This document shows, piece by piece, positions 2 to 56,100 of a stretch of DNA of 64,000 nucleotides (positions are counted from its first letter, which is position 1; every line of letters starts with the position of its first letter). A model generated the notes under the pieces. The model was not told where the DNA came from, did no database searches, and saw nothing but the letters and a program-made list of their open reading frames with translations. This DNA comes from a virus. The position numbers and the translations under genes were made by a program. The stretch lies in IMG/VR virus record IMGVR_UViG_3300020193_000003; one strand, 5' to 3'.

Positions 2-3000
2 AGGGACAGGGACGCCGGAGGGAAGGTGGGCCTCGTCTTCTCCTACCCGAGCTCGGTCAAGGACAAGCCGGGCGTGAAGGAGGACAGGAACAGGACCATC
101 TTCAACCCACTTGTCGTGTACGGCGAGTACGACAAAACCATCGGCGAGACCCGGATCCTCGTGACGGACGACCGAGGCATAACGAGGCTCGTCCCGATGT
201 CGCAAGTTGACCTGTCCAAGCTCGCAACCGACGAGGAGAGACTCGGGGACCACTCCAGCAATTACGACGTGCAGGTCGGGGACCTCAACGCATACGTGGT
301 CGGCGACGAATACGTGGACGGGAAGAAGCAGAGGAGAGTGTTCAGCACCGACAGGATGAAGCCAGCGAAACGCGACGACAACGAGAGCACGAAACCGGGA
401 CCGGCGACCAGTCAACCCACCGCTGGCACGACAAGCCGGGCGGCGGGCAGCCCGGACACGCGCGAGATCCCAATCGTTGCCAGCGACGCCGACGACGACA
501 ATCTCGCGGGCCAGATCGAAACCAGACCCGACGAGTTCGACGCAGTGACGCTCGATCCCCGGCCCGAGTACGTTGCACCCGGCGCCGGGGTCGACGGGGC
601 GAAACCCACGGCGAGGGAGGTCGCGTGGGGCTTGGCGCGCAACGACCCCAAGGCCATCAAAGCGGGTCGGGCGGACGAAAAAAGGCTGTGGGAGCGAATA
701 AAGCTGGGCACCCAGAAATGGATCGAAACCTGGAAAGCCAGGGCAGTTACAGACGAAGAGACCGGCGAGGAGGTGATAGACCCGAAAACGGGCCATGTCG
801 CCTTGAGAACGCCGTTCAGGAAGGCGTGGCGACCCTGGGGAAATCCGATCGGCCCCGACGGCAGGGAACTTCCAACAGGCATCAAGGCCGAGATGGACAG
901 AATCAGGAGCTGGCCTGAGTTCATGAACTTCATAAAGCGCAAGAAGCTCGTCTTCGTCGACTGGGAGACGACCGGCATTCCGATAGGCGAGATTGACACG
1001 GGTAGGCCCCTGCAAGTGGGCATCATCGTCGTCGAAAACGGGGATTTCGCAAACCCCAAACGACTCGAGGTGTGGATAGATCCCGCCGGCACGCCGCTGT
1101 CGGATTGGACGAAGAAGAATGTGAAGAAGAACGGCATCCCCGTCGGTCAAGCGCTAGCGACGACACCGGGCGAATTCGTGCCCGTCGACGAGGCGCGGCG
1201 CCGAATAGCGGAGGTCGTGGGGGCCGACGCGATAATCATCTCCCACAACCTCAGGAATTTCGACATGTCGCTGTGGAAGGAGGTGATGGGCGAATACCCC
1301 ATCGCCGGCTGGATGGACACGCTCGCCATCGCCAACTGGGTGTTCCACATCGACTCCTACAGGTTCAAGCAGATTCAAGCACACCTGAATGACTCTCCGT
1401 CTGCGAAGTCCGGTAAGAAAAACTACGACAGGGACATGAACCCGTTCGTCAACTGGATCTCAAAGGCCATCACGATCCGCGGGAGACATCCCCTATTCCC
1501 GCGTGCCAGGTCGTGGGGGGGAAGAGGTGGCAAACCAGACGCCCTCGACAGGATAGGACGCAGGGCCACCGGTCCGCTGAAGTACATACCAACGTTGAAA
1601 AAGGAGGGTCTCGGACAGTGGTACCCGAGGTTCTTTTCGTCCAACGCGCTCGAGGCGCTCGCCCGGTACTTCGGCGTGCCCGCAGAGGCGGGGCACGACG
1701 CAGTGGCGGACATAAACGTTACCGCCAAGGTGTTCCTGGAAATGGTGGCGCTCGCGGAGCGGTGGGGAAGGGCCGATCAGATGTTTGACCCAGAACTCGT
1801 GCGGTGGGCGCAGGCCCAGGTCGACGAGCAGTACGCGGCCGACCTCGAAGCTTGGAGAAGGCAGAGCGGCATCACGGAGCGACCACGCGAGAGATTGTTC
1901 GACCCGGAGGCGCCGACAGAGCCCAGCGGCGGAGACGCGCCAGGGGAACCGCGACCAGGGGGCGGTGGTGGTGGGGCGTCCACGCCCCCAGGCGGGGGAG
2001 ACACCCGACCACCGGGAGGCGGAGGGATGCCACCCACGGACGACGGAGACCCGAACAGGAGGCTTTTGTACCAGACGGCCTATGGGGTCCGCGTATACGA
2101 GACGCCCACGGGCATCCACTACGAATTCAAGTCGGTCTCACCCAAGGAGGGGCCGAGCTCCGCGACCGTCGCTTTCGCCACGTTCAACGAGGTGCGGGAG
2201 GGAGGATTCGCGATCGAGTTCAACTACGGCAGGAATCCGGACGGGTCGACGGCGGCGTACAGAATCATCTCAATCGAGCTGACGACCAAGTCAGGAATCA
2301 GCGGGTCGGAGGCAGCCGGGCCAAACGACTTGGTGGTCCACGGAATTGACCTCGCGGACGGGAAACTCAAGAAGTTTGATTTCGCCCAGATCAACGCAGG
2401 CGGCAACACCCCCCCGAGACCCAGCGAGCTGACGGAGCTTCCCGCGAACATATACGGTGTACGCACGGCGGCCGGCCCTGGGGGCAAACCGACGACGCCC
2501 GCCCAGTACGCCGACCACATGAGGAGGAGGGCCTTCGGGAGAAGGAGGTCGCCGGACGGACCGATCGCCGGCATGGCGGGCCTGACCAACAGGGACGGAG
2601 CGACGGACTCATCCTCCTACTGGGTCGCAACCACCGACGACGTGGCCATGGCGGACATGTCCGATGTCGAGCTATCCGAGCGACTCGCGGCGCACAGGCT
2701 CAGGTTCGAGAACGCGTTCCACTCGGGGCCGTCCTCAAACGCCGCCATGTCAAGGGCGCTCGATTCGGTCGCCGCCGCCAACAGGGTGATGAGAATCAGG
2801 TCAAACGACAGCACGGACCAAAACGGATTCTCCGTGTCGATGGGCAGGATGGGGTACAAGCTGACCGGCGAATTCAGGGCCCCACCGGGGGTCATGGACG
2901 GAAGCTACGAGCTCCCCGGTGAGTTCGTCGCCGACAGGGCCGAACTGGCCAGGAACGCCAACCTGTCGCTGATGCTCGACTACTCGGTCGCCAACGGGGA

Positions 3001-6000
3001 GATTGCGGAGGCCCTGGAGAGGGTCTCAAGGTTGTCGCGAGTCCCTAGGTCCGAGCTCCTCGGCAGGCTGTCGACGCACGACTACTCGATGTACTCGGAC
3101 GCAATCGCGTCAAGGGCGTTCAGGAACACGTCCGAGATGGTGTCCGATGGCGTCGCCACCCCCTCTTCGCTGGGAATGATAATTGACCCCGCCTCGGATC
3201 CGGCTAGCGCGGCGCGCGCCGTGGACTCGGCGCTGCGCAGGCTGGGGATCAACGCGCTGGACATTAGCAACGGGTTGAGGAGGGGAGGGAGGAACTACGC
3301 GCAAAGCGAGGCGGACGACCTCATCAACCAGTTCAACGAGTCGGTTTCGGACCTGTTCTCCTTCGACCATGACGGTAGGCGTTCCGATCCAGAGTTCAGG
3401 GTCAAGTCCGACGCAATCAAGGACAAGATAAGGGACTTGAGCGACGAGATCAGGAGGAGACACCTGTCTTCGCCGCAAACGGACGCGGAGGCCGGCATGG
3501 GTAACCCGGACCCCGACCTGCGCCGCTTGATGAGCGAGTTCACGCGACTCGCCCCCTCCATGAATTTCGAGGCCGCCACGGACGCAGGGTTTGACGAGGA
3601 TTGGAAGCGTCTCTCCGACCAGATAATCGACGACTTCGTCCGGCGGCCGGGCCGTGGGACGGAGCAGGCGTTCTCCTCGTTCGGCGATGCGCTGAAAGGC
3701 AGGGCGAGCGCTGTCGGTCGGGCTATCGACCGAATAATCGACCCGAGCAAAGCCCCCATCCCGGCAAATTCCCAATTGGGACGCGAGGTGGTCAAGTCCA
3801 CCGCGAAGATCCTCGCACTCATCTACGACCTGAGGTTCGGATCAACGGACATGCTCGGACTTCTGGCTTCCACGCCGGGGGCGGGCCCGGGCTCCGGAGT
3901 CAGCGGGCTGGACGTTACCTACAAAATGATCGATTCCGGCGCCGCCGTGCTGTTCGCCAGGGGCGGCCGAAGGGCGCTGGTTGCGTATCTGGTGGAGGCC
4001 GTGAGCCTCGGTCTGGTGCCTGCCTACAGGGCCATGGGGATTCTCGACAGGCTGTCCCCATCCCCCAGGACCGCGGCCATATCCTCGGGAGCCGAGGCGG
4101 CCATGGGCCGGTCGGGCGGTTCCTCGCCGTTCGGCGACGCCGACGGAATACCGATACTGAGCGGATCAAAGTGGTTCGACTCGCGGCTCCACGCCATGTT
4201 CGGTAGCGCAAATTACGAAAAGATAGCCACTTCGTTCGGGAACCGTTTCAGGACGCTGCCCGACAGGAGCTGGAACTCGCCGACCGACGACGACCTCGTC
4301 GACATCTACCACTACGCCACGATGCTCAACCACGACTCAATGATCGAGGACCTCGTCATAAGGGGCGACAGGGTGGACGCCGTCGACTTCTCCCAGTTTG
4401 ACGTGGCGGACGCGGGACAGACCCCCGTCGGGGTCACCGGGGTGATCGAGAGAGTCGCATCGTTCACGGGTCTACCTGCAGCGCAGGTCCTCGGCTTCGT
4501 TGAGAGAGGGCGCGACGTCGCGCTCGTGCGCCGACTCGCCGCCATGGACCCGGAGTCGAGGATAGAGCATGCGAATGCGATGCGTCGCAGACGCGCTTTC
4601 ATGAGGTTGGTCGAACAGAAGAAGGGCGAGCTGGGCGACGACTTCCCACTCTGGATGGCGGAGGCGTCGATCAGGCGAGACAGGGAGGAGAGTCGGTCCG
4701 GGGTCTTCGGCAACGATTTCGCCGAGCTTATGGACGACGAGACGAATAGGTTCTACGGCGAGACGCCAGCCTCGGCCCTCAAGAACATCTCCCGCTTCCT
4801 CGGGATGGACAAACCCCCCACGAAGATGACGCAGAGCGAACCGCGTCGCGACGGGGAGGCTGGCATGGCTGGCAAGAAACCCTTCATCAGGCAACGCTAC
4901 GACTTCAAGCCGGTCGACGGCGGCTTCGTGATCATAGACACCGACAACAGGAACGCAATTTCAAGCAGGGTTTTCAAGGACAGGAGGGAGGCCCTGCGAG
5001 GGGCCGAACGCATGGACAGGGGAGACAAGACGTTCGACCCGTTCGCCCCCCCGCCGTCGGAGCCAAAGACCGCGACGGAGGTCGTGGCGGAGGACCCGAG
5101 GATGCAGGAGATGTCCGATCCCGGCAGGCGACCGACGCTGTTTGACGACGACGGTGACGCGAATGCGGGGATGTCGAGCACCGGGTTGCCCAGCACGCTG
5201 AGGTTCGTCGCGAGGAACAGCGGGAAGCAACAGGTCAGCATGGACAACGTCCGCTCGGCCATGTCGGAGTACGAATCCGGTCGAGCGTCAATCCCCTTCC
5301 CATCACCCGACGACGCGCCGGTCTCGAGACTGATCGGCGGGTACGCATCCAGCGACTCCGCCCTGCACACCGTCCTCGGAAGGATAGAACAACTGGCGCC
5401 CACCGACGACTCCGCCGCCAAGCAGGAGGAGATGAGGGGTCTCGTACAGAATCTCTCGAAACTCCAGCGGAGGAGGAACTACTTCTACAACCAGCTGATG
5501 GAGAGACTCGACCCGGGTGACCCGGATTTCGAGACGCTTGAGTCTTGGCACTCTCAGAGGGCTGGCATCGCCAGGGAGTCCTCGAGCCGGTTCGGCGTCG
5601 GGAGCCTGCCCGTCTACATACTCCCGAGGGGTGCGGAAACGGACGACGCGCAGGCCGGCGCCAACTCGCCAAGCTACATGCGCGCCTCCGGCGACGTGTC
5701 CTCGCTAGAGGTCGTCAGCAACGACGCGGCGGACAGGATCGGATCGTTGATCGGCTCGTCCGACTACTCGGTACGGGAAAGGTACGACGAAGTAATCAGG
5801 TCGGTGCAGCGCGACGTCGCGCGAATTTCCCGCATGACTGGGCAATCGATGGTCAAGTTCGGACAGAACTCGGTCAGGATAGGGGCGCAACTGCTGGCCA
5901 TGGCCGACAGGACGGACGGGAGCGACCGAGAACTGCTCAGGAGGGAGCTGATATCGGCGGGTCTATCGCGGATGCTCTCCGACGGCGGCGTGAGACTCGG

Positions 6001-6265: not shown

Positions 6266-6297
6266 CTACTATTGCAGTCATACAACAAACAGTCTTC

Positions 6298-6310
6298 TAC
6301 AATTGGAGGG
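6298..6310 (+). promoter_or_regulatory. Putative -10 box (TACAAT) followed by Shine-Dalgarno GGAGG for ATG 6314
   Basis: AT-rich gap after the 6265 stop: TACAAT-TGGAGGG-ACC-ATG. No well-spaced -35. Confidence 0.4.
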
Positions 6311-6313
6311 ACC

Positions 6314-8116
6314 ATGAAATACGCCGGAACATACAATGTAAAGTCGATGACGTCCGCCTACCAATTCGCCCTTGGCGAACTGGCGATGATGGAGGAGGAC
6401 GAACCCGAGGACGAGGTGCTTCTGCCGATACCGCAATCGGAACTGTTCTACGCAAAATCGGCCATAGACGCGGTCCTCTCCGACTACGACATGAAGTCAA
6501 GCGCGGTGCCCGACGGGATCATCCTTTACGACGCGAAGACTATCGGTCCGAGCCTGATCAATGAGCTGAAGCACGCACTGAACGAGGTCCAGATCAAGGC
6601 CCTCGGGGCGACGATCGGCGGAGCTAGGCCGGCGGCCGGTGGCGGCGCCGCCGGGGACATGATCGACAGGGACTCAGACGGATACATCTACGACGGAACT
6701 CCGCAGGAGCAGAGGGTCCCGTACAAGCGACGCGACAACAAGCCGGTCGGCGGAGGCGCGCCGGAGGGGATGGAGCTGCGACGCAGGCAATTCGTGCGAA
6801 GCGAGGCCGCCAGGCAGGGCGTGCAACTCAACCGTGGTCCGAAACGATCGGAGCAGGAGAGAAGGTTCAGGACCGAGGCGAGGGCGAGATTCGACAGAAT
6901 AGCGCTCGAGGGTCAGGGCTTCATCCCGCCGGACAGGATAGAAGCGAGCGACAAGCGCAACTTCGAGAACCGGATGGGCGACGTGAACGCAGGGCGCGTC
7001 GACGATCAGGGCAGGAGCGGTTTCGGTTACGGCGGCGAGCGCGACACGTCGTTCGAGGACAACGAGTATCGCAGACAGCAGGGACTGCGCGACACCTCGT
7101 TCGAGGACAACGAGGACAGGCGCAACGAGGGCAAACGCCCACCCGACACCTCCTTCCAGGACAACGAGGACGCACGCAACAGGGGCAAGCGCCCCGCCGG
7201 GAGACCAGTTGACAGGTTGCCAGGAGCAGGCGGACCAAGCGGGAGTCTCAACCCAGGACAACGAGGGGCCAGACCCGACACGTCGTCAGAGGACGCCGAG
7301 TATCGCAGACAGCAGGGAATGCGCCCAGCAGGTAGACCCGTGGACAGGTTGCCAGGGGCTGCCGGACCAAGCGGGAATCTCAACCCAGGACAACGAGGGG
7401 CCAGACCCGACACGTCAAATCAACGAGCGGAAGACGCTCGCAATCAAGGCAAGCGCCCCGCAGGAAGGCCCGTGGACAGGTTGCCGGGAGCAGGCGGTCC
7501 CGGCTACGACGACTCGTTCAGGGACAACGAAAACCGCCGTCTGGAAGGCAAGCGCCCACCCGACACGTCCAACCAGCGAGCCGAAGACGCGCGCAATCAG
7601 GGCAAGCGGCCCGCCGGGAGACCAGTTGACAGGTTGCCAGGAGCAGGCGGACCAAGCGGGAATCTCAACCCAGGACAACGAGGGGCCAGACCCGACACGT
7701 CAAATCAACGCGCCGAGGACGCCCGCAATCAAGGCAAGCGCCCAGCCGGTAGGCCCGTGGACAGGTTGCCCGGGGCTGGCGGACCTGGTTACGACGACTC
7801 GTTCAGGGACAACGAAAACCGCCGCCTGCAAGGCAAGCGCCCACCCGACACGTCGAACCAGAGAGCGGAGAGCGCGCGTCAAGCCGGCGCTCGTCCACAA
7901 AGACCAGTGGACAGACTGCAAGAACCGGGTGGACCAAGCAGAAATCTCAACCCAGGACGACGAGGAGCCAGACCCGACACGTCGAACCAGAGGGCCGAGA
8001 GCGCGCGTCAGAATCGCGCGCGCCCGAATCGCCCGGCTGACAGATTGTCGGGGGCCAACAGAGCGCGCAGGTTCCCCAGGGGGCGGAGCGACTACTACTA
8101 CGGTGGCGAAGCGTAA
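6314..8116 (+). CDS. Repeat-rich Arg/Gly/Pro protein (600 aa) with the shared KALG...DxDxDG module; putative head-internal protein
   Basis: GGAGG before ATG 6314. IKALGATIGG...DMIDRDSDGYIYDGTP nearly matches the 58732 protein. The C-terminal half is mosaic tandem repeats. Confidence 0.8.
   Translation: MKYAGTYNVKSMTSAYQFALGELAMMEEDEPEDEVLLPIPQSELFYAKSAIDAVLSDYDMKSSAVPDGIILYDAKTIGPSLINELKHALNEVQIKALGATIGGARPAAGGGAAGDMIDRDSDGYIYDGTPQEQRVPYKRRDNKPVGGGAPEGMELRRRQFVRSEAARQGVQLNRGPKRSEQERRFRTEARARFDRIALEGQGFIPPDRIEASDKRNFENRMGDVNAGRVDDQGRSGFGYGGERDTSFEDNEYRRQQGLRDTSFEDNEDRRNEGKRPPDTSFQDNEDARNRGKRPAGRPVDRLPGAGGPSGSLNPGQRGARPDTSSEDAEYRRQQGMRPAGRPVDRLPGAAGPSGNLNPGQRGARPDTSNQRAEDARNQGKRPAGRPVDRLPGAGGPGYDDSFRDNENRRLEGKRPPDTSNQRAEDARNQGKRPAGRPVDRLPGAGGPSGNLNPGQRGARPDTSNQRAEDARNQGKRPAGRPVDRLPGAGGPGYDDSFRDNENRRLQGKRPPDTSNQRAESARQAGARPQRPVDRLQEPGGPSRNLNPGRRGARPDTSNQRAESARQNRARPNRPADRLSGANRARRFPRGRSDYYYGGEA
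7040..8060 (+). repeat. In-frame mosaic tandem repeats (RPAGRPVDRLPGAGGP / SGNLNPGQRGARPDTS / NQRAEDARNQGK / GYDDSFRDNENRR)
   Basis: About 6-7 copies of the RPVDRL unit are visible in DNA and protein, with synonymous divergence between copies. Confidence 0.9.
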
Positions 8117-8128
8117 ACGAGCGAGTCA

Positions 8129-8332
8129 ATGAACGGTAGACCAAGCGGCGAGTACACCCGCGGGAACCGTGTTATGGGTTATGATAAACCTACACAAAAT
8201 AACGCAGTCAAATTGAAATATCACTGCATTGCGACGGGCGAGAAACGCCAGTTTCCATGCGGCAGTTGCGTCAACCACAAGGGTTGCCTAGCGACGACGA
8301 TGCAATACAAGGAGCGAAAACATGGAACCTGA
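8129..8332 (+). CDS. Small Cys4 (zinc-knuckle-like) protein; start may be ATG 8173
   Basis: HCIATGEKRQFPCGSCVNHKGC resembles MCKATGETVMEPCAECKGDC in the next gene. Fills the intergenic gap. Confidence 0.55.
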   Translation: MNGRPSGEYTRGNRVMGYDKPTQNNAVKLKYHCIATGEKRQFPCGSCVNHKGCLATTMQYKERKHGT

Positions 8333-10181
8333 GACCGGAACACCAACCGTAAAGATCGGGGAAGACGGTCAGGTCCTGCAGTGCGCCAAGGGTGCCGAGA
8401 CGGCGGCCTGCGGCTACAAGGCCGGGGACTCCGTTTGCGCGGCATGCGGCGCCACGGCGATCGAGGTCAAGATGTACGGCGACGACGGGGCCGACGGAAT
8501 GATGTGCAAGGCGACTGGCGAGACGGTGATGGAACCCTGCGCCGAGTGCAAGGGCGACTGCTCCATGATGGCCTTCAAGGGCGAAATGCCGGAAGAGCTG
8601 CTTGCGAGATTCAAGAAGAAGAAAAAGAAGAAGAAGGGTGGCAAGAACCCGTTTGCGGAGGCGGACGAGGAAGACGAAGAGATGTCGGAGAAGGTCGCCA
8701 TGTACGGCGCCCCCCCAGCGAGGGCCTACGGCGACTTCGTGGACGACGAGGAGCTCGGGATCATGCCCGAGGACGGCGAGGAACTGGATATCGAGGAGCC
8801 GGAAATGGACGACCCGGACGAGGAGATTTCGGAGTCCATCGCCATGGGCACGCCCCCGCAAAGGAAGAGGAAGAGTGCCTACGTGGACGAACCTCGTCGC
8901 AGTAGCGAATACGAAGAAGAAGAAGAAGAAGACGAGCTCGAGGAAATGATGGACGAGCCGAACGAGGAGGAGATGGAGGAGGACGCCGAGACAATGGGCT
9001 ACGGCATGTACAGGAAGTCCGACTACGCGGACGCCCGACTCGCATCCATGGGTTTCAAGCAGGGCGAGATGGGCGAGAGCCCGTTCATTTGCGCGATAGA
9101 GAGGAAGCTGTACCCAGCGAACTCCCCGGTGTGCGAGAACTGCCCCGGTGGTTGCGTGAAGGAGGGCGACATGCCCGCGCTCCTGGAGATGGAGGGCGTC
9201 GCCGAGGACATGTTCAGGGGCAAGGTGCTGGACTCCGGCTACTCCGACAAGGCCGACATCTTCGTGATCGACGTGGAGCGCAAGGACGGAAAGCCGGTCG
9301 AGGCGTTCTTTGACGGAACCACGGGCGAGTGCATGGGTTGGCACCTGTTGAACGACGAGGTGCTCAACGTGAAATCGGGATTCCAGCCGACGCAAATGAT
9401 CGGATTCTCGGAGGCGGCGCAGATCGCGACGAAGAGCATCAACGGCGACGTGGTGTCCGTCGAGGCAGACGTGTTTGAGGGGTTCGACAGTTACGCGGTG
9501 GAGGTGGAGGGAGTGGACGGCAAGTCCTACGACGTGTTCGTGTCGCTTGACGGCGAGGTGCTCGGCTACGACACCTACACGCAACAGGAGGCCTTCGCCA
9601 TCGAGTCCGAGGCGGCGGAAATAGCACTCAAGCGCGCCTACGGCGACGACGTCAGGAAGCAGATGGCCGAGCGCGGCGACGCCATGGAGGACGGGGAGAT
9701 GCCCATCGCAAACGACTCGGACCTGAGGAACGCCGTGATGTCGTGGCCGAGGTCCAAGAAGCGCACCGAGGCGAAGGAGCACATCATGGCGAGGGCCAGG
9801 GTCCTCGGTCTCGAAAAATCGCTCCCCGACGAGTGGTTGCAGGAGAAGAAGCAGAACGAGGAGGCGAAGGGGGACGCCAACTTCCTCTCGAGTCTTGCCG
9901 AGTTCGAGCTGATCACCGAGGAGATCAAGTCGTCCAACTCCGAGGAGGATGAGGCTGAGCTGTACTTCAAGCGGATGTTCAGTGACGAGCAACGCGAGAG
10001 CGAGGCCAAGAAGGGCAACGCCCTGCCCGACGGCTCGTACCCGATAGCCAACGAAACGGATCTCAAGAACGCGATCCAGGCGTACGGCAGGGCCAAGGAC
10101 AAGGACAAAGCCAGGGCCCATATCGTCAAGCGCGCCAAGGCCCTCGGTAAAGAGGATTTGATTCCGGAAAACTGGAACTAG
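8322..10181 (+). CDS. 619 aa acidic protein: Cys4 knuckles, two PepSY-like domains, two C-terminal DUF6582-like repeats
   Basis: AAGGAG Shine-Dalgarno. PepSY-like IGFSEAAQIATKSINGDVVSVE...YAVEV...YDVFVSLDGEVL plus an upstream copy. Duplicated G(D/N)A(M/L)xDGxxPIANxxDL(R/K)NA...A(K/R)xHIxxRA unit. Confidence 0.8.
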   Translation: MEPETGTPTVKIGEDGQVLQCAKGAETAACGYKAGDSVCAACGATAIEVKMYGDDGADGMMCKATGETVMEPCAECKGDCSMMAFKGEMPEELLARFKKKKKKKKGGKNPFAEADEEDEEMSEKVAMYGAPPARAYGDFVDDEELGIMPEDGEELDIEEPEMDDPDEEISESIAMGTPPQRKRKSAYVDEPRRSSEYEEEEEEDELEEMMDEPNEEEMEEDAETMGYGMYRKSDYADARLASMGFKQGEMGESPFICAIERKLYPANSPVCENCPGGCVKEGDMPALLEMEGVAEDMFRGKVLDSGYSDKADIFVIDVERKDGKPVEAFFDGTTGECMGWHLLNDEVLNVKSGFQPTQMIGFSEAAQIATKSINGDVVSVEADVFEGFDSYAVEVEGVDGKSYDVFVSLDGEVLGYDTYTQQEAFAIESEAAEIALKRAYGDDVRKQMAERGDAMEDGEMPIANDSDLRNAVMSWPRSKKRTEAKEHIMARARVLGLEKSLPDEWLQEKKQNEEAKGDANFLSSLAEFELITEEIKSSNSEEDEAELYFKRMFSDEQRESEAKKGNALPDGSYPIANETDLKNAIQAYGRAKDKDKARAHIVKRAKALGKEDLIPENWN

Positions 10182-10192
10182 GGGGGATCGAG

Positions 10193-13100
10193 GTGGCTCG
10201 CCTCGAACGACACCTGAGAAAAAGCCCGGGTGAGAAGTCGCTCGGGCCGACCGTCGGCGGTGCGCCGAGGAACCTGAACCCGTTCACCGCGAGGGACGCC
10301 GACCTGGACATGGTGGTCCTGGAGGGCATTGCGACGGTCAACTTCGGTCGAGGCGTCCCAGACCCGACACCCGGCGGAGCCGCGGAGACGCCGTCGGCGC
10401 CAAGATTGAGATCGCCCCTCTACGCGACCAACGAGGATTTCGCCGTCGCGGCGATGTCCGGCCCGAATCGTCGCCCGAGCATCAGCGAGGAAAAAGACCC
10501 AGGTGACGTGAGGAATCCAGACGGTCATTTTCCGCGGCAAGCCGGACCGATGTGGAGGGACACGAGTTTCACGGCCCTGCACCTCGCGCCGAGGGAGCGG
10601 AGGGGCACGAGCCCGGCTTCGGTCAACACGTATCTCCACGCCGAATGGACCGAGCCGTACTGGGACGCCGTCAGGGACGACACGGGGATATGGAACTCCC
10701 CGCCACCGCCGGAGATGGAGGTCGAGCGCGCCATCTACGACGCAATGAAGAGAGAGACGATAGAGGTCGGCGGGTACAACGTTCCGTTCCCCCAGCACCC
10801 GAAGGAGTCCGACTACGACCAGTACACGGACTCAACGGGCGCCACCGTCAGGCACCTCACTGCCACCCGAAGTTTCCCCTTCCGCAATAGGGAGAACCCG
10901 AGGTGGACGGACGGGCACCCGCTGTACCACGCAACCCCGACCGGCGCGTTGCCGCGGATAGTCGCGGAGGGACTGGTCGCAGGCACCGACCGCCAGCTGT
11001 GGTTCGGGGCGTCACCGACGGTGTGGAACGAGCAATTCCCGCACAACGCCGCCCGCCAACTGAAGTCACCGATCAAGGGAATGTCGTTCCTGCGGATCAG
11101 CCCGACCCAAACGATGAACGAGAGGCTCTCCCGCCTCGCGAAGGTCAGCGATGTCGATCGGGCAACGGTTCCCGGGCCCCTAGCGATAGATTCGGCTGGG
11201 AATCTGATCGGGCCGAGGGATTCCTGGGCGCAAATTGCGGTTGGTCTCCTGAGCGACGCCCTGTGGTTCAACGACATCAAGATACCGACGGAAAACATCG
11301 AGGTTCTGAGTCAGACCGGAGAATGGATCCCGTTGTACAGGACGGACCTCTCGGACGTGGTTGCTGATCCCACGAGCGGGCCCGAGGCCGGGATGGCGAA
11401 AGAAAAGAATCGCGGCATCAGAAGAATCCTTGCGTCAATAACGAACGGCAAACACGGCGACGACGAGGGGGCGGACGAACAAAAACCCGCCTCCAAGCCC
11501 CCCGCCGAGGTCCCGGTGGTGGCGCAAATACCCAACCCGGAACCGAGGATCAAATACTCAGACTCCTACGGCGGCGACGACCTCATCAAGAACGAGCAGA
11601 GAATCGTGCGCATAGACCACGAGGGATTGGTGGCTGCGGGCCGCTGGAAAGACATCCACGGTGACCATTACGACTGGTGGGCGTACCCGATAGACAGGGG
11701 GAGCGGCCAGTACGGCGAGGCGTTCAACGTGGCCGGCGAGCCACTCCGGAGGTTGAGGGAAGACCCGGAATTCCTGGCCAGCCTCGCGCGGGAAATAGAG
11801 ATACAGGCCCTCGCCCTGGGTTGGTCGTTGTACGACCAGGACTGGGTGGAAAAGCTCGACTGGGAGAACGGCCAGGACTGGAGACGGGCCTACCCGACGA
11901 GGCTGTGGAAGGCAACCAGATCGGCGCAGATATTCGGGCTCCAGAGGGAGTTCGAGTCGATGCTCGCATTGCACGACTCGCTCGCAGCCGGGGGGGTGCG
12001 ATTCAACCACGAGGATTACTGGGAATCACCCGGGACGGTCGACGATGTCCCGTCGCTGGGAAAATCGTGGAAGGAGAGGCAAGAGGAGTGGAGACAGCGG
12101 TACCCCGCGAGCGACGCCACCAGCTGGACGAGCCCGCACCGCCCGCTGCCCCAGGGTCCCAAGCGGGGTTCCGACGATTCACAAATGACGCTCCTAGAGG
12201 AGGATCGGGTGTGGGACGCCTACGACAGCTACACAACTCCGATCTTCCCGGTCGTGTCCGACGCCGAGGAGCTAGCCGACATCCTGTCGGAACCTGACGA
12301 GATGATCGAGTTCGGTTACCCGTACGAGCGAATCGACAAAGAAACGAGACAGCTGATCGCCGACGACATCTTCTTCGCCGTCTCCCTGTTGATGGACGGC
12401 GAGTTCCCCGACGAGGAGTTCACGGACAGGCTGGAGTCCGCCGAACAAATGAGGCGATATGCGGACGGGCAGGAGGGCCTGTACCCGGAAGACAGGGACA
12501 TCCTGTACGCCCTTGCCGACGCGCTGGAGAACCCGGTCTCGTTGTACGAGGACATCGGCTACGAATCAACCGACTCACCGGACGGCGAGGCGGGGATGGC
12601 AAGACGCTTCCGGCGCCTGGACGAAGAACCCGATTATTCGGATATGAGTTTGAGCGACACGGAGATACAGAACTTCATAGAGTCCGAAGCCGACGAGGTC
12701 ACCGACGACCTGATCTTCGGCAGGGAGGTGTCAAGGGCGTTCGCCCAGGAAGAAGACGAACCCATCCCGCGATCTGTCATACCAGTGAGACAAATATCAA
12801 TCCCAACGCTGGAGGAAATTCCGGAGGACCTAAAACAGTCGTACATCAAGTTGTGGGCCGGAGGCGGGAGCTTCGTCGCCATAAATCGGCAGCTCGGAAT
12901 ATCCAACCATGACGGCGCCGCCATACAAACGGCGCTCCTCAGAAGCGGGGAAATCCTCCCGAGGACCAAGCGCACCTCGGGGGACTCACTGCGTCTCACC
13001 CCCGAAGACGAAAGGGTCTTCGTCGAGTGGTCCAACGAAGGGGCCGATATGGACTTGCTGACATCGGTGTTCGGACTCACCGCCGGGCAGACCGCCGAGA

Positions 13101-17484: not shown

Positions 17485-17496
17485 GAAATATACGTC

Positions 17497-17502
17497 TATA
17501 AT
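17497..17502 (+). promoter_or_regulatory. Putative -10 box TATAAT
   Basis: Perfect TATAAT in an AT-rich gap before the next giant gene. Confidence 0.4.
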
Positions 17503-17552
17503 TGTTTGATGATTGTCAAATCCCGTCGCCGGGAATAGAGGATAAAGGGCAG

Positions 17553-31522: not shown

Positions 31523-32087
31523 TGACACGGGAGTGAAGGCGGATCCGCTTGGCGGCCTGCTGCCGCAGGAGGTCGTCACCGGCGACATAATGCGCGGCTA
31601 CGGCCCGCGGCGCGGGAACCTCGAGCGGTTGCTGCGCTACTGGAGACCGATAATGAAAAAGCCTGGCGGCTTCCGGAGATGCAGGGTGATCCTGGCGAAC
31701 CACCCCGAGCTCTACCCGCTGAACAACATCTGCGCCTGGTTGCACCACGAGACGACGGGCCTCTGGCCCAACGAGGGTTGCCACCACCCGGGGATGAAGA
31801 ACTGCAGGAGGAAGTTGCGCGGAGTGGTGAACGGGTCGCTGTGGAGCGACTCGGATTTTGACGACCGCATCAGGAAGCTGACGAGGAGGGTGACCAAGAA
31901 GAAGGACCTTCGGTCCAGCGGTGGAATCGACGCGGCGCCACCGTACGAGCCGTTCGTCCCCGTCATCACCGACGACGACTGGGACCACGCCTGGAAGGTC
32001 ATGGACGACTTCGTGAAGATGGAGACGAAGTTCGTCGCATTCGTGTGCGACGACAACAACTGGGAGATGTTCGACTCGGATGTATGA
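31512..32087 (+). CDS. 191 aa phage protein with a Cys/His/Trp motif; head-associated candidate
   Basis: GNLERLLRYW...PGGFRRC...ICAWLHHETTGLWP, a motif I recall from actinophage head-region proteins (unverified). GGAGG Shine-Dalgarno. Confidence 0.7.
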   Translation: MKTDDTGVKADPLGGLLPQEVVTGDIMRGYGPRRGNLERLLRYWRPIMKKPGGFRRCRVILANHPELYPLNNICAWLHHETTGLWPNEGCHHPGMKNCRRKLRGVVNGSLWSDSDFDDRIRKLTRRVTKKKDLRSSGGIDAAPPYEPFVPVITDDDWDHAWKVMDDFVKMETKFVAFVCDDNNWEMFDSDV

Positions 32088-41081: not shown

Positions 41082-41155
41082 CGTCCCGGACGCTTACCTT
41101 GAAGTATCCTTATCGGTACTAAAAGCGCGCCCAAAACGCGAGCGGATGGGAAAAG

Positions 41156-44100: not shown

Positions 44101-47100
44101 AAAGCAGTCAGACGACCTCGTGGACAGGATCGGCATGGACCCGAAGGGGCCAGTGATTGACATAGCAGAGACGTTCCTGGTGACGGCGGAGCAATTCCGG
44201 TGGGACCAGCAGACCACGGCCTCCTTCTACGAGGACGTCGCAGAGATGATGAACGAGATGGTCCAGGAAGTTCCGAATGCCAAAAAGCGCCAGCTCCTGG
44301 CCGACATGTTCACCGACGCCCTTGAGGACATCGCAGAGAACATGGATGACGGCAACACGGAATTCTTCGCGAGTACGGGGGACATCCCGTCGAGGACGGT
44401 GGGCAGGCTGGCGCGCAGGCTAGGACAGACCGATCAGCCACGCGCGCGATCCGACTCCGAGGCCGGCATGGTCGGCCCGGACGACGAGCCGCGCGCCATC
44501 GTCGAGCCGATGCCGGAATTCCCGGACGACGAGCCGCGCGCCATCGTCGAGCCGATGCCGGAATTCCCGGACGACGAGCCGCGCGCCATCGTCGAGCCGA
44601 TGCCGGAATTCCCGCCTACGCCGCCGAGGAGGACGATGACGGACGGGGAAATGGTCACCATCTACGGCGAGGTGCAGCGCATCTTCCGCTCGCTCGACAA
44701 CCCGAACATTTCCAAGAACCCAAACGACGCGGCTTCGTGGAGAGAAAAGATGAGGGCGGCCGGAATCAACATTCCGTTCTCCTCCGACGAGGGCCTGGAC
44801 GAGGTCGCCGACCAGACGCTCCCCGATGCGCCCGACGACCCGCGAGCAGTGTTCTCGGATCCCTTCGCAGGCGTGTCCCAAGACGCGGTCCGGTACCTCG
44901 ACGACCTGATGTCCATAGTCCTAGAGGAAATAGGGGCGAGCATCAGCGGCACGACAGAGGATTTTGTAAGGGACCTCAGGAGGAGGACTGGTGTGAGGAA
45001 CTCCTCGGAGTTCCACGACTTGGTCCGCGCGCTGAGCACCAGCGACGGCAGGGCCACCCTCGCGGACTTCTCCGAGCAGGTGATGGAGAACAACTACTTG
45101 ACCACCTCGGCCATCAAAAAGAGGATGACCGACAGGTTCCCGGATTTCTACGACGTCATGGACTACTCGGGCTCTGGTGGCGGCGACGCAGAGGCGGGCA
45201 TGTCGGGCCCGATCGTCGACAGGATAAGGGAGAGGTACGTCGCCCAGAGGAAGATAAGGGAGCTCGGGGGCGTCGCCAAGATAAATGACGAGAAGGACTA
45301 CAAGATGCGGCAGACGGAGGCGAGGCGACGCAGGCTCTTGTCGATGGCGGAGCCCGACGGCTTCTTTGACTTCGTGACGAGGGGCGTCACGGATCAGAGG
45401 TCCCCGCTCTACCTGAGACCCATAGCGGAACGCATGGGTGGCCTGTACCAGTACGTCAAGGAAATGTCGGATGCGCAAGTTGACGCAACCTGGCAGGGCT
45501 TGGAGAATTTCGTCAATCAAGCGCGACGCGACATGTTCGGCGGCGGCTTGTCGTCTCCGTACATGACGCTCTACAACGCGGCGAAAGCCAAGACAACGAT
45601 GGACGACCCAGATTTCAGGCCCGAGGGGGGGAGATTCAGCGACGAGGAGTTGCTGTCGAGGATGGAGACGAATTCTTGGGATGAGATTCTGCCGCCCCCG
45701 CTGGACATGAGGATATCCGAGTCCGATGTTGATGCGGTGCCGTCATTCAGAGCGAAGGCGCAGGCAGCCTTGGAGGTGATAGCCATCGACAGGGCCCAGC
45801 TCATGGAGCTACTCACTGGTGAGAAGACCTCGGAGGAAGCAAAAGGAAAAATTTCGGAGGAGTTGGAGACCCAGGCGAGAAACGTAAGACAGACGATCGC
45901 AAGGAGGGCGGGGAAGGTCGAGTACGTTCCGACCCAGCTCCACATGGAGCAGATAACGGCCGCGGACGGAATCACTCCGCTTGACTCGGAGTCCCTCGTT
46001 GCGTTCGTGTCAACGCTTGACAACGCACAGCTCTCATACGTGTCGTCGGCATCAATCTCCACGGAAGAGGCGAAGGAACTCGTCAAGGCGGAATCACGGG
46101 CGATATCGTTCGCCAGCGCCTCAAGGAAATTGTTCGCCATCAAGAGCATGGCCGACCTGGAGCCAGAAGAGGCATCCTATTTCTGGATCAAGGCGGAACG
46201 GCTGATCGGGGACGCGACCATCAGCAAGCCAGTCAAAAAACTGATAACCGCGATCGTCGACGACAACGTCGTTGCGGCATCGCAAGCCCTCTCGGAGATC
46301 GAGCCGACGGACGACAACGAAAACAGCCTCGTGAAGACCATGTGGGAGATGGGTCGCAACTCCAAGGGAACGTTCGTGACCGCACTCCTGCCGCCGAGCA
46401 TCGACGAAGCCGAGAGGGATGCCATGCTCAGGACGAAGGCGCTCGGCGTTCTCAAGTCGCAACCGGACGGCGGGAGGGCAATGGCCCGCAGAACGATTGA
46501 CCACCTCCCGAAGGACGGCAGGGGGTACGAGCCGGTGCGCATCGTGCCCGAACTGGGGGAGGGAGAGGCGAAGATCATCAGCTTGGCGGAGGCGATCCGG
46601 GCCTACGACGGATCCTCCGAATCGGCAGCGAAGATAATCGAAGCGATGACTGACCCGCAGATAGAGAGACTGAGGAACAACTACATAATCCCGTCGATCA
46701 TCCAGCGGATGGACAGAAGGGCCCACGAGGCGAGGCTGGAGCAGAGCTCCATAGCGCAGACCAGGGCGAGAATAGACAACCTCGGCAGACGCTTGGAGTT
46801 GCTCACCTTCGGAACAGTGGATTCGGGGAACACAGTTGAGGAAATCATCTCAAGGACGGACGAGGCACTGTCAAAGGCGTTCGGCGACAGGGTTTCCGAC
46901 TTGTCCATGTTGAGCCGCGAAGAGCGCCGTTATTACGGCGACATAATTGATTACTTCATCTCCGGTGGCACTGAAATCTTCGACGACCCGTCGCAGTACG
47001 GGATGGCGTCGCGGGCCTTGAAGGAAGCGGCTGCGGAAGTCCCAGAAAATCCGACACTCCCGCCGCTCGACCCGAACCCCGACGCGCCCCCACCGCCAGA

Positions 47101-53100: not shown

Positions 53101-56100
53101 GTGGCTCGATCTCGACAGGATGGACGACATCTACCCAGTGGTTGGCACGAACTTCAGCGAGGCCGTCAAGGAGATGCGCAGGACGCTGGGAGGCTTGGCC
53201 CCCGAGGCTGTGTCGGCTGTTTACCGCGGCAGGGACCAGCTCATTCTCGCCGCGGAATCGGCCAACCGCGCGCTGACGCCTGACGCGGACAGAAAGAAGG
53301 CATTGGAGACGATGAACCTGTACGTCATCCCGGTGATAAAAGGCTTGATGGCGGTGCACAGGACAAACATCGAGATCGGGTTCCGGCAGGTCGCATCGTT
53401 TGCCGAGGGTCTGAAGCGCCTGACCCAGGCGACGCCCATGAGCGGGGTACAACGAGAGCTCATGACCATCGCATCACTGCTTGCCGAGTTGCGCCTAAGG
53501 GGATCGATAAACGACGTCACTTACTCCAAGCTGATGATGGAGATCACCCGCGCCGGAGCCACGACCATGTTCGGCGACCTGGAGTTCGGCAACACCGTGA
53601 TGGAAGCCATCGCAAACGGGAGCACCGATGACGTAATGACGTTCATGATGCTGATAGACGACGCCGTCTCGGACAACGTGGACGAGGACAGGCGACGCGA
53701 GTTCATCGACAAGTACAAGGGGTACATGACCGCCGCACAAAGCGCGTTCGGCGACGCCTTCGAGCAGCACATCAGGAGCGGCTTCTACGGAAGCGTGAAG
53801 ACGATCGGCGAGGCGGTGAGGGAGATGGAGCCATTCATCCTCGCCACCGAGCGCGCGCGCAGGAGGAGGATCCTGCTCCAGAGATACAAGCGAGAGGTGA
53901 TTGACCCCGTAAAGGACTCCCTGCTCACCGATGAGGAGAAGTTCAAGGACCTGAGGACCTTCAACGAGTGGCTCGACGCCAGCGGGTTCCCCGACCTCAC
54001 GTACGACAAGGGCAACTCGGGTGGCGACGGCGAGGCGGCGATGTCGGCCACCACGAGGACCGCGATGGCCAGATTCACCGATGACGCCGCGTCCGCGGTT
54101 GTCGAGGGCTACGAGGATTCGGCCAAGTCGGGTTCGTCAAGACTCAACCTCGGGCACATGCTGTCAGGGGCCTGGAGGGCGCTGATGACCGACACGAAGT
54201 CCGGTTCGTACGCGTCGAAACTCAGGAGACTCAACATAAGACCGGAGAGGATGGCCGCGGCGCTTGCGAGCATCACCACCCCGAAGGACGGCCCGTCGCC
54301 GAAACCCACGGATTATTCCAAGGCTGCCAAGAACGCCATGATCGGGGCCATACGGGCCGCCTCCAGGAGGGGCGACGAGTACGTCGATCTCGGCGACCTG
54401 CTGCAGGCGATACTCGACCCGTCACTCAGGGGACGGGACGACGACGGCGTCGAAGAAGCCCTGATGCTCGCCGACATTTCTCCGAACGTGATAAGGATGG
54501 CTATAGCGCAGGCGAGAATCTCGGGCGGCAGGGAGCCGATGTCGGACGCCGAGGCCGGCATGTCCGCCAGTCGCATGGCGATGAACTCCGCCGACAAACG
54601 CGACGACCTGAAGAGAAACAAGATGCTCGCCGACGGCATGTGGTTCAACTCCGACCGACAGGTCCCTGTCGCCACGGGGACTGCGACCGACGGGCAGCTC
54701 GTCGACGAGGTGGAAAGACTCATGAACGTCTACGCCATCGGCGCCGCGAGGTCCGAACTGGAACCCGTGGACTTCCGCAGCGGGGAATCACCCTTCTCCA
54801 ACGCGGCGATCAGGCCGACCAACTCGCGCCTCATCCACGGCGACAACGGCCAGGAGCCGACCGACCTTGTCGGAGCGATCAGGCACGCCATGGACAGGGC
54901 CGACGCCCTGTTGACGGACGAGATGGAGCAACGGAGGTTCCACGAACTCAAGTCAAAGATGCGCCTCTACTTTGACAACGACGAGCACATGCCCGACGAA
55001 AAGGGGGACGCCGAGGCCGGCATGGCGAGAAATTTCAACGAGATGATTGAGCCGATAACGGAGAACTTCGGGCGCTCGGAGAAGATCGGGCAGAGGCAGT
55101 ATTTCGAGGGCATCTACGGCGACGCGGACCTGAGCGAGGCAGAGTTGCGAAAGGCGGCCGACGTCGCATCGCTCGGGTCGCCCTTCGACATATCGCGCAA
55201 CCTCGACGGCAACGAGGACGACGTCAACTGGAGCACGGGCCAGTGGTCGTTCAACAGGGACCAGACCTACGTTGAGGCGGCGGACTCCGTGATGATAAGG
55301 ATGCGAGACGGCGACTTGACCACGGCAGAGATTGCGATGATCTCGCGCAAGAGCGGCCCTTTCAGGGACGCCATGGCCCTCGTCGGCGGACTGAAGGACG
55401 AAGGCGAGGATTTCATGACCACGGCGGCCCGGGAGACGGCGGAGGAGGTCGGAGTTTCCCTCGAGAGGGCGCTACAGGCGCAGTACATCGGAACGATAGA
55501 GTCGCCCGACTGGGATCCCCGGTTCGTCAACGGAGCGAAAGTTGGCGCCGGGATGTTCGTCCTGCCGTGGGACACGCCCCTCGTGGCTGCGTCCGACGCC
55601 GCAGGTGCGCGCTGGGTTCCCCTGTCGGAGATAGCCGCGGGCCAGCACAGGCTCGCCTTCGGGCACGCCGAATGGATACGAAGGGCCGTCGCCGCGATGC
55701 AGATAGACCCGTCGTCGGACCCCTACGGGGACCTTCGTCTCTCGATAGCGATCAGGCTCGGGTTGCTCTCCAAGGCCGCGAGGGTGAGGAACCAGAAGAT
55801 GATCGCCATGGTCAACCTCGTCCGCAGGGCGACGGGCAAGAAGTTGTTCCCCGAGCAGGGCGACATGCCGCACCCGATGATGCCGTGGGGCAACAGGGTT
55901 GCGAGCTCCTCGTGGAGATTCGGGCCCGATGCCGAGGCGGGAATGTCCGCCTCACCCATCGACGACTCACTGCCAAGGGAGCTCGGCCTTCTGTCCGTCC
56001 AGAGCTCGATGCCCCCGCGTCTCCTCGAGAGCGGTGCGGACACCGCGGGCTTCTACAAGGTCGGGCACTCCAGGGGGGGCGACGACTTGTTCTCGGCGTG

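Follow-up and report, generated by a model that had tools for sequence, protein, structure and literature searches.

Seven proteins encoded in DNA of an uncultured large phage are punctuated by a short peptide, D-[AG]-E-A-[GA]-M, that lies at the boundaries between their modules and is replaced by other peptides at the homologous sites of related phages. The stretch analysed, here called the window, comprises 64,000 nt of one strand (IMG/VR record IMGVR_UViG_3300020193_000003). Other peptides occupy the same joints in relatives, so the linker most probably serves as a signal for cutting the modules free, a candidate function read from the sequence. We infer that the proteins are packaged, delivered by injection and cleaved; as the reader we favor, at a probability of roughly 0.4, a cargo-borne zincin-like protease for which the linker would be a fast-evolving cleavage code on ejected proteins.

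The linker peptide

The first-pass annotation of this DNA listed 30 linkers, and all 30 positions carry the peptide in the frame of long + strand ORFs. Two further pattern sites, DFAVAAM and EKPAGM, bring the total to 32, spread over the seven proteins (Table 1). The motif is strongly above background in shuffled sequences: D-x-E-A-[GA]-M is observed 19 times vs 0.07 (sd 0.25) expected from 300 residue shuffles, an enrichment of ~270-fold; EA[GA]M 22 times vs 0.87; and the looser pattern of the annotation 42 times vs 2.0. Across six frames, 19 of 23 EA[GA]M matches fall in a single + frame. In the 32 sites Met is followed by A (12), S (11), G (3), V (3), T (1), R (1) or K (1) and never by Pro; the earlier statement that all sites but one have A, S, G, T or V there holds for the original 30. 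Third codon positions vary at the linkers, as had been claimed, and therefore selection is at the peptide level; synonymous variation in the relatives' codes includes TCN/AGY Ser and CGN/AGR Arg.

Table 1. Features of the window in order of position, all on the + strand ("then" introduces the residue after Met; "aligned" gives the peptides of five relatives)
Feature	Position	Remark
Predicted protease-headed cargo polyprotein, C-terminal 2087 aa	2..6265	5' end outside window; 5 linkers; DnaQ-like exonuclease module
Linker DGPIAGM, then A	2555..2575	
Linker DAEAGM, then G	3482..3499	
Linker GAEAAM, then G	4088..4105	G001: DAEAAM
Linker DGEAGM, then A	4850..4867	
Linker DANAGM, then S	5156..5173	
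614-aa head-module protein	6272..8116	without linkers
619-aa scaffold-like protein	8322..10181	without strong linker; weak match to C-terminal part of phrog_80
Predicted 2362-aa cargo polyprotein	10193..17281	address tag, 6 linkers, HEFFH motif; sigma-70 region 4 HTH, phrog_4776, DUF4314-like modules
Putative address tag DADLD..LEG....N.GRGVPDPTP	10295..10372	
Variant linker DFAVAAM, then S	10436..10456	added to first list; 28 residues past address tag; kept in G002
Linker GPEAGM, then A	11378..11395	
Linker DGEAGM, then A	12581..12598	module-replacement breakpoint vs G002
Linker DGEAGM, then S	14021..14038	
Linker DGEAGM, then S	14777..14794	
Linker DGEAAM, then S	15257..15274	module-replacement breakpoint vs G002
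HEFFH motif	16766..16780	candidate zincin
Predicted 3531-aa cargo polyprotein	17502..28097	6 linkers, HELNH and HEYAH motifs, KTSC and GNAT-like modules
Linker DPAAGM, then S	18549..18566	
HELNH motif	19581..19595	candidate reader Z1; module syntenic in five lineages
Variant linker EPDVGM, then A	22428..22445	
Linker DAEAGM, then A	22803..22820	G002 similarity restarts here
Linker DGPSAGM, then A	24264..24284	
Linker DGPSAGM, then G	25077..25097	
Linker DPEAGM, then A	26166..26183	
HEYAH motif	27021..27035	
916-aa protein	28407..31157	address tag, one linker, then 790-aa module with HEMGH motif
Putative address tag	28572..28649	
Linker DGPVAAM, then V	28764..28784	38 residues past address tag
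HEMGH motif	29757..29771	candidate reader Z2; weak similarity to G006 HEMGH module
697-aa protein	32080..34173	conserved in all lineages, 36-39% identity
EDEAGM, then V	33334..33351	in 697-aa protein; doubtful working site
Predicted 1849-aa cargo protein	34163..39712	address tag, 2 linkers
Putative address tag	34895..34972	
Linker DAEAAM, then R	35333..35350	
Possible linker EKPAGM, then K	36251..36268	added to first list
Predicted 5243-aa cargo polyprotein	41156..56887	address tag, 11 linkers; C-terminal ClpC-N-like, unknown, Nudix, zeta-kinase modules
Putative address tag	41537..41614	
Linker DVSAGM, then A	43382..43399	
Linker DAEAGM, then T	43943..43960	following module duplicated in G002, between two linkers
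Linker DSEAGM, then V	44453..44470	
Linker DAEAGM, then S	45185..45202	
Linker DIEAGM, then A	47171..47188	
Linker DAEAGM, then A	48959..48976	
Linker DAEAGM, then S	51038..51055	
Linker DGEAAM, then S	54026..54043	aligned: GANAGM, GAEAGM, QTDAGM, GPVASM, PIGKM; low pLDDT
Linker DAEAGM, then S	54545..54562	aligned: DPSAAM, SPEAGM, SAEAGM, GPTASM, GPIGKM; low pLDDT
Linker DAEAGM, then A	55007..55024	aligned: DASAGM, DAEAGM, QPEAGM, EPTASM, SPTGRM; low pLDDT
Linker DAEAGM, then S	55928..55945	aligned: VNAGM, AEAGM, AEAGM, PTASM, PVGKM; low pLDDT
HK97-like major capsid protein	57264..58586	probable start 57264, ORF opens 57183; PF05065 E 6e-44; HK97 gp5 E 1.2e-51

Modules and their genes

Linker flanks are less hydrophobic than background (0.222 vs 0.283, reached by 0 of 5000 permutations). 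In an AlphaFold model of 53996-56884, the four linkers (residues 11-16, 184-189, 338-343 and 645-650) fall between folded domains, in stretches of pLDDT<50 that part domains resembling ClpC1-NTD (TM 0.81), Nudix (0.79) and zeta/AvrRxo1 kinases (0.54-0.58). The Clp-N, Nudix and zeta-like assignments made earlier are thus borne out by Pfam and by fold; those of DUF4314 (E 0.0048) and GNAT (E 0.009) have matches, but only below Pfam cut-offs, and the module labeled an R-S-E ART matches phrog_4776, of unknown function (E 8.5e-57). Similarity between the window and the related genome G002 stops and restarts at linkers. These results support the linkers as protein-level signals at module boundaries and the modules as swappable cassettes.

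The predicted cargo genes are situated between an HK97-type (S78) protease and the HK97-like capsid gene. The first product in the window is 93% identical to aa 3383-5469 of a 5469-aa ORF in the nearest relative, G001, that begins with Peptidase_S78; in this relative the protease heads the first polyprotein. The DnaQ-like module of the first product matches phrog_192 (E 6.4e-13). The 614-aa protein has no match in Pfam or PHROG, and its N-terminal part resembles the C-terminal part of an 831-aa protease ORF in G006; the C-terminus of the 619-aa protein resembles that of gp27, a protease-scaffold fusion of Gordonia phage DalanDe. The N-terminal region and HExxH module of the 3531-aa polyprotein are syntenic across five lineages. 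The single EDEAGM of the 697-aa protein lies in a variable Ser/Thr-rich loop and is missing from the G005 and G006 orthologues. The capsid protein has no copy of the motif, as first reported, and none of the lineage codes in the relatives; an invariant GANM stands upstream of its N-arm.

A putative address tag of ~26 residues is common to four window proteins, usually followed by a linker, and also occurs in the first polyprotein, after the protease domain. The order of tag and linker fits capsid loading. Together with the boundary signals, the protease-capsid location and the swappable cassettes, it lends partial support to the first-pass reading of these genes as packaged polyproteins.

Turnover of the code among relatives

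Other peptides stand at the aligned positions of relatives whose capsids are 65-90% identical: [NS]AGM, TASM, ISGRM, ITGAM, PIGKM, and also STRS and LSSG. At four aligned joints the six genomes compared read EAGM, [NS]A[GA]M, EAGM, [ED]AGM, [TV]ASM and [IV]GKM/TGRM, and at three joints ISGRM of G005 aligns with [ILV]TG[AS]M of G006. The four cargo polyproteins of G033 hold 35 STRS, and further relatives carry LSSG or LRSSG. In the complete 138-kb genome of G005, 14 of 14 I[ST]GRM that fall in real ORFs are encoded between the protease and capsid genes, and one ISGKM is in the tape measure protein. The tape measure evidence is drawn from relatives and not from the window's own gene: three code copies in G006 vs 0.044 expected (P<0.0002), two STRS in G033 vs 0.022 expected (P=0.0002), and one N-terminal site at which LTGAM, LTGAM, LAGRM and STRS align. 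The tape measure protein of the closest lineage (G001, G004) has only variant PMAAM-type sites.

Candidate readers of the code

Under the favored mechanism, D-[AG]-E-A-[GA]-M would be this lineage's version of a junction code in disordered joints between independently folding modules. The code-bearing proteins, that is, the giant capsid cargo and in relatives also the tape measure protein, would leave the virion with the DNA, the polyproteins having probably entered the procapsid via the shared address tag. An endopeptidase would recognize the code beside the invariant Met and cut the polyproteins into ~40 unrelated modules, among them a ClpC-N-like domain, a Nudix hydrolase, a zeta-type kinase, HTH/sigma-like domains, a DnaQ-like exonuclease and many unknowns. 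The reader would co-evolve with the code, and we rank a fast-evolving HExxH zincin-like cargo protease above the HK97-type head protease, which hardly varies. Cutting may thus take place outside the capsid lumen or after ejection. The window has four HExxH motifs vs 0.15 expected, conserved in G001 and G002. The modules have no peptidase family in Pfam or by profile against PDB sequences, and the AlphaFold model of the HEMGH module has a pLDDT of only 43, so what points to a zincin is a five-residue motif and the setting in which it lies. If a cargo protease were active in the producing cell, it would sever cargo and address tag ahead of loading, unless held inactive.

It is less probable, though conceivable, that the S78 prohead protease reads the code, cutting procapsid-loaded polyproteins after Met (P1) and before a small P1', as do T4 gp21 and the phiKZ/SPN3US proteases. 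The location of the cargo genes and the fusion of the first polyprotein to S78 agree with this. So does the tag-then-linker order, which follows the same principle as the capsid-targeting sequence of T4 (PMC7411985). At 26 of the 32 sites Met is followed by A, S or G, and at none by Pro; such a small residue is reminiscent of P1' in assemblin-type proteases. HK97 gp5 is likewise cut before Ser, and the invariant GANM is kept in the capsids, but in some lineages it is followed by Pro. The analogy to gp21 and phiKZ gp175, implied in the first-pass annotation, is weakened on three counts: the S78 domain is 75-90% identical across lineages whose codes range over EAGM, ISGRM, STRS and LSSG; the capsid protein, its obligatory substrate, is without the lineage code; and the code is found on tape measure proteins, which are assembled outside the capsid. 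Among the few positions at which S78 varies, two, 1 and 4 residues past the catalytic His, do track code class, but phylogeny confounds this covariation (positions 70 and 73): 7 of 67 variable columns discriminate between the code classes.

That the peptide stays uncut is improbable. It would then be a short linear motif in flexible joints that is modified or that docks to the capsid interior, a chaperone or the ejection channel. In favor of this, phage N4 ejects a ~3500-residue protein without cutting (PMC5512222), and many codes (ISGRM, ITGAM, TASM, STRS, LSSG) contain Ser or Thr that could be modified, but the window's own code has neither. Single copies per boundary, tandem copies, copies directly after each tag and cassette breakpoints are, however, what cleavage sites look like. 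Less probable still is that, once the proteins are ejected, a protease of the new host cuts them, with lineage codes reflecting different hosts: the proteins that bear the code, capsid cargo and tape measure, are precisely those that should enter the host, and the relatives' G+C, from 0.41 to 0.62, suggests different hosts, but the window, G002 and L004, close relatives of similar G+C, already differ in code. We also know of no bacterial protease with four-to-six-residue specificities of these kinds. A DNA- or RNA-level signal or relic, such as former gene junctions or internal translation starts, can be practically dismissed: GAG-GCN-GGN-ATG in the window does put a Shine-Dalgarno GAGG five bases ahead of ATG, but variants such as DGPSAGM have no GAGG, the relatives' codes (ATH-TCN/AGY-GGN-CGN/AGR-ATG, ACN-GGN-GCN-ATG, STRS, LSSG) have no such signal, and third positions vary freely.

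Relation to known systems

The earlier claim that such a cargo system had not been described is half right. Polyvalent proteins for which processing by a protease is predicted are in print (PMC5512222), and it is established that ejected head proteins are processed at a motif (PMC7411985), but no recurring junction peptide replaced from lineage to lineage was found in the literature. The polyvalent proteins of phages and conjugative elements (Iyer, Burroughs, Anand, de Souza and Aravind 2017, PMC5512222) are, like those of the window, giant multi-domain proteins that mix Nudix, zeta-type kinases, nucleases and HTH domains, are encoded beside virion genes and are proposed to travel with the DNA; an embedded zincin-like peptidase is proposed to cut out the units, a likeness to the cargo protease favored here. 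The word "linker" has 0 occurrences in that paper, the passages drawn on here contain no repeated junction peptide, and by Pfam the window has none of its MuF, LPD or MPTase families. In contrast, one peptide marks ~32 joints in seven proteins of the window, is exchanged in concert from one close relative to another, and in relatives marks the tape measure protein too.

T4 IPI-III and Alt likewise have an N-terminal targeting peptide with a protease site behind it; they are packed into the prohead and leave together with the DNA on ejection (PMC7411985), and their capsid-targeting sequence is removed by gp21. They are, however, single, small proteins cut once after a 10-20-residue leader at an x-x-Glu motif common to the capsid protein, whereas the window has chains of up to 5243 residues (5469 in G001) with up to 11 joints, Met- or Ser-type codes, S78 in place of a gp21-type protease, and a capsid without the code. 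In phiKZ and SPN3US (PMC7411985; PMC10052503), many ejected head proteins are processed at a short motif, by gp175 and gp245, and long N-terminal propeptides of 111-130 residues probably target them to the prohead. That motif is conserved from T4 to giant phages and shared with the capsid protein, and the cargo is encoded by separate genes; here the code turns over among phages with 65-90% identical capsids, and dozens of modules are held in few genes. RNA virus polyproteins, as at picornavirus 3C sites, are also single translation products split at a repeated short site, by a virus-encoded protease, but they supply replication and structural proteins, whereas the window encodes putative accessory cargo of a tailed DNA phage with ordinary gene-by-gene expression. 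The system is a variant of the polyvalent proteins and of the T4 and phiKZ internal proteins.

Junction peptides between cargo modules

The short peptide D-[AG]-E-A-[GA]-M, which joins the modules of the giant cargo polyproteins, is probably a cleavage signal (probability about 0.75). At all 30 linker positions listed in the first-pass annotation the peptide stated there is encoded, in frame with a long ORF, and two further sites, at 10436 and 36251, fit the pattern, bringing the total in the window to 32. In the scan against residue shuffles that the annotation had proposed, D-x-E-A-[GA]-M was observed 19 times against 0.07 expected and EA[GA]M 22 times against 0.87. Met is followed by A, S or G at 26 of the 32 linkers and by Pro at none. 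Third positions of the linker codons are free to vary, as seen in codon tables of three lineages; in the codes of relatives Ser is written as both TCN and AGY, and Arg as both CGN and AGR. It is therefore the peptide that is conserved, not the DNA.

The linkers were said to lie in disordered stretches around whole domains, and this is borne out. The hydrophobic fraction at the linker flanks is 0.222 versus a background of 0.283, a value reached in none of 5000 permutations. For the 5243-aa protein, the final 963 residues were modelled with AlphaFold from a 32-row alignment (mean pLDDT 74). The model has five stretches with pLDDT <50, of which four contain the four linkers; the domains modelled with confidence in between have their matches in ClpC1 N-domains (TM 0.81), Nudix ADP-ribose pyrophosphatases (0.79) and zeta/AvrRxo1-type kinases (0.54-0.58). 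The module between linkers 14021 and 14777 spans positions 26-226 of the 237-position profile phrog_4776, thus covering nearly all of a family that otherwise stands alone in phages. When the window is compared with its relative G002, similarity is lost at linker 12581 and regained at linker 15257, a single module having taken the place of three; other breaks, too, fall at linkers.

The effector-type domains in the window proteins include the ClpC-N-like, Nudix and zeta kinase domains, assigned by fold and Pfam; a sigma-70 region 4 HTH, a DnaQ-like exonuclease and KTSC are also present. A 697-aa protein (32080-34173), matching no family, is 36-39% identical in all lineages, far above the cargo, and in every case its gene comes right behind a gene or module bearing an HExxH motif. 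The one EDEAGM copy falls in a variable loop and is missing from distant orthologues. Upstream of the 5243-aa gene, a 315-aa ORF (40134-41081) carries DUF3721 and DUF5872; the 5243-aa gene itself opens with a DUF3721-like stretch (41156-41400).

Gene setting and the address tag

The window is a single block of plus-strand genes with 58-63% G+C, and its full contig measures at least 142 kb. The capsid ORF is open from 57183 to 58586, its start being probably the ATG at 57264, where relatives align. The capsid has no match by exact-protein look-up, and the window shows no DNA similarity to deposited phages. A capsid-protein search of IMG/VR recovered 285 relatives, present in freshwater samples, the nearest of which, G001, has a capsid 96% identical to that of the window. 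In G001 a Peptidase_S78 domain, the HK97-type head protease, matched as two pieces that share a frame, heads a 5469-aa ORF; with residues 3383-5469 of this ORF, window ORF 2-6265 shares 93% identity. The ~65 kb from head protease to capsid gene are therefore taken up by the linker-bearing genes. PF04586 scores above cut-off in relatives only, since the S78 part falls upstream of the window. Of the catalytic residues, H67 and S131 do not vary among 40 S78 sequences, and H163 hardly does. The open frame that contains S78 ranges from 474 to 4740 residues across relatives (G010, G013, G015, G021, G023, G026, G027, G035 and G039), which means that fusion of cargo to the protease, or its separation, has occurred repeatedly. 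Directly after S78, G001 (L091:2277-2900) and many relatives of several code classes have a Cys-rich mini-domain, GPCWPGY.Q.GMK.GK.G.MVPNC[VI]P; PF19846 occurs together with PF04586 in some database relatives.

Coordinates of the capsid gene, address tags, HExxH motifs and code-bearing tape measure sequences
Feature	Sequence	Position	Strand	Remarks
HK97 gp5-like capsid gene, last large gene	window	57264-58586	+	Pfam E 6e-44; PDB sequence E 1.2e-51
Address tag	window	10295-10372	+	
Address tag	window	28572-28649	+	
Address tag	window	34895-34972	+	
Address tag	window	41537-41614	+	
HExxH motif in cargo module	window	16766-16780	+	
HExxH motif in cargo module	window	19581-19595	+	
HExxH motif in cargo module	window	27021-27035	+	
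HExxH motif in cargo module	window	29757-29771	+	
Tape measure protein with code	L146			relative G006
Tape measure protein with code	L147			relative G033
Tape measure protein with code	L149			relative G014
Tape measure protein with code	L105	7419-12512		relative G005

Four window proteins share, near the N-terminus, a 26-residue address tag, [DN]AD.D..[IVL].EG....N.GRG[VI].DPTP, which is also found behind the protease domain in G001 (L091, aa 583-608) and in the distant G005. In most cases the tag is followed within 8-45 residues by a linker or a variant of it, and in one G005 protein the two adjoin directly (GGEISGRM). In sequence pattern the cargo shows a putative targeting segment at the N-terminus and then a putative cleavage site, as in ejection proteins processed by head proteases; the tag-then-linker order follows the same logic as the T4 capsid-targeting sequence (PMC7411985). 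The tag may have arisen from the protease's own targeting segment and serve for loading into the capsid. In the 5262-aa protein of G001 a variant linker, DFAIAAM, stands ~30 residues after the tag; the window has a deletion relative to G001 at ~41620-41700 and no such variant.

Turnover of the code

The last four joints align column for column in six genomes and read EAGM (window), [NS]A[GA]M, EAGM, [ED]AGM, [TV]ASM, and [IV]GKM or TGRM. At three joints ISGRM of G005 lines up with [ILV]TG[AS]M of G006, both genomes being complete. In the complete 138-kb genome of G005, all 14 copies of I[ST]GRM in real ORFs lie between the protease and the capsid. G033 (L143-L145, an 86-kb contig), whose capsid is 70% identical, has STRS instead of any Met-type code: 35 copies occur in four cargo polyproteins, a 75-fold enrichment, and none in its portal, protease, scaffold-like and capsid proteins. 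LSSG or LRSSG is the code of further relatives. Set side by side, ISGRM[GS], STRS[S] and LRSSG resemble successive steps of variation on x-[ST]-x-R-[MS]-S. Replacement of the sites as a set, together with free synonymous variation, is the pattern predicted by co-evolution with a reader, presumably a protease recognizing the code.

Capsid and tape measure proteins

The motif had not been seen in the capsid, and the capsids of eleven lineages indeed lack the code of their lineage. An invariant GANM, followed by Pro in some, is common to the capsids of all lineages compared; it and the position equivalent to HK97 K103|S104 were compared as candidate capsid cleavage sites. All relatives, as well as the capsids of the cultured actinophages DalanDe and Cantare, retain a Met in G(R)N-x-x-M, ~22 residues upstream of where the HK97 cleavage site would correspond. 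Among cultured phages the nearest capsids belong to actinophages and are 44-46% identical. Gordonia phage DalanDe, whose capsid is 45% identical, encodes a 1633-aa "capsid maturation protease", gp27 (L104:14943-19844), a protease fusion in which ~1100 residues precede the S78 domain and two similar small modules each begin right after G-M. DalanDe gp27 has scattered G-x-M sites and no stereotyped code, and no clear code was found in gp11-13 of Brevibacterium phage Cantare. DalanDe could serve as a laboratory model.

The lineage code is found in the tape measure proteins of four relatives: three copies in G006 against 0.044 expected, two STRS in G033 against 0.022 expected, ISGKM and LAGRM in G005, and the code likewise in G014. 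LTGAM, LTGAM, LAGRM and STRS coincide at one aligned site ~45-60 residues from the tape measure's N-terminus, and there are one or two more sites. Tape measure and capsid cargo are expected to be alike in leaving the virion at infection.

Candidate readers of the code

A phage protease other than S78, possibly borne by the cargo itself, is tentatively the likeliest reader. Four HExxH motifs occur in the cargo modules of the window versus 0.15 expected, in a context typical of a zincin helix, e.g. TAMHEMGHVLDY; these are candidate zincins without a match to any known peptidase family. The module with HELNH (18567-22445) is syntenic in each of the five lineages examined, and the copies of the HEMGH module (28785-31154 in the window) in the window lineage and G006 are weakly similar. 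A hydrophobic P1' residue would suit a zincin. The modules also fit the published proposal for polyvalent proteins, in which zincin-like peptidases process the chains, possibly after injection (PMC5512222). Searches with these modules gave no Pfam match at E<=1 (five regions), nothing among PDB sequences with a profile from six copies of the syntenic module, and nothing usable in the ESM Atlas or among the window proteins with a two-sequence HMM of the G005/G006 module. The AlphaFold model of the HEMGH module (5-row alignment) has a mean pLDDT of 43, too low for use.

Reading of the code by the S78 head protease, the obvious candidate, is somewhat less likely. This protease is fused to the first polyprotein, has precedent in the head proteases of T4, phiKZ and SPN3US, and as an assemblin-type serine protease would be suited by the small residue after Met. 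Two of its variable positions beside the catalytic His, 70 and 73 (the latter S, E or D), track the code class, but as the classes are separated at 7 of 67 variable columns, phylogeny is an equally good explanation. The domain is 75-90% identical between lineages whose codes differ completely, and this holds near the invariant His, Ser and His as well; the capsid protein, a necessary substrate of a head protease, is without the lineage code; and the code sits in the tail tape measure, not a head protein.

It is improbable that the peptide is an uncut docking or modification motif, and more improbable still that a host protease reads it. A relic at the nucleic-acid level is scarcely credible: a Shine-Dalgarno plus ATG relic or internal starts were rejected on the codon tables of three lineages and on the non-Met codes. 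A 2A/StopGo peptide (D[VI]ExNPGP) was also rejected, there being no NPGP at any linker and the codes of relatives being unrelated to D[VI]ExNPGP.

Relation to known systems and significance

The system is a variant of polyvalent proteins and of motif-processed ejected head proteins. As in the polyvalent proteins of Iyer et al. (2017), several unrelated effector-type domains share one chain, and the genes lie among virion/late genes, here with the portal/S78 protease on one side and the HK97-like capsid gene on the other, a position implying, from gene order, probable delivery with the DNA. None of the Iyer signature domains (MuF, LPD families, ArdC-N, DarA-N and others) was found in any window protein by Pfam at E<=0.01; the ESM Atlas gave the sole hint, an LPD23 cluster whose cosine of 0.81 is below the trusted level. 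Processing of the T4, phiKZ and SPN3US type places the same cleavage motif in capsid and cargo and confines its substrates to the head, whereas here the capsids lack the code and the tape measures of relatives carry it. The first-pass annotation did not recognize the arrangement as described. Both parent kinds are in fact known, but the repeated, lineage-switching junction peptide was not found in the literature: searches returned no phage polyproteins described as having a Met-type or repeated junction peptide, none at every module boundary of chains of up to 5469 residues, no wholesale code replacement between close relatives and no code in a tape measure protein.

A wider and rather doubtful proposal concerns the whole clade, made up of large phages that are uncultured and number 285 by capsid in IMG/VR: all that the virion ejects would be defined and processed by a programmable code of 4-6 residues together with a dedicated phage protease that evolves fast. 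The ejected set would comprise the tape measure and capsid cargo of ~19,000 residues, with roughly 40 effectors freed in the new host. Between lineages the code would switch in its entirety, Met-type giving way to Ser-type, perhaps as insulation from the proteases of competitors or of host defence.

If the joints are cut, no other modular protein payload yet proposed for tailed phages would come close to this one in size; the code marking its units would be readable from sequence, and the system would be a natural case of rapid co-evolution of a protease with dozens of its own sites. It would also offer a design rule for loading foreign proteins into phage capsids and releasing them. Thousands of orphan domains in metagenomic phages would gain boundaries and a context as early-acting injected effectors, and polyvalent proteins, so far a purely computational concept, its predicted processing step included, would become open to direct bench test.
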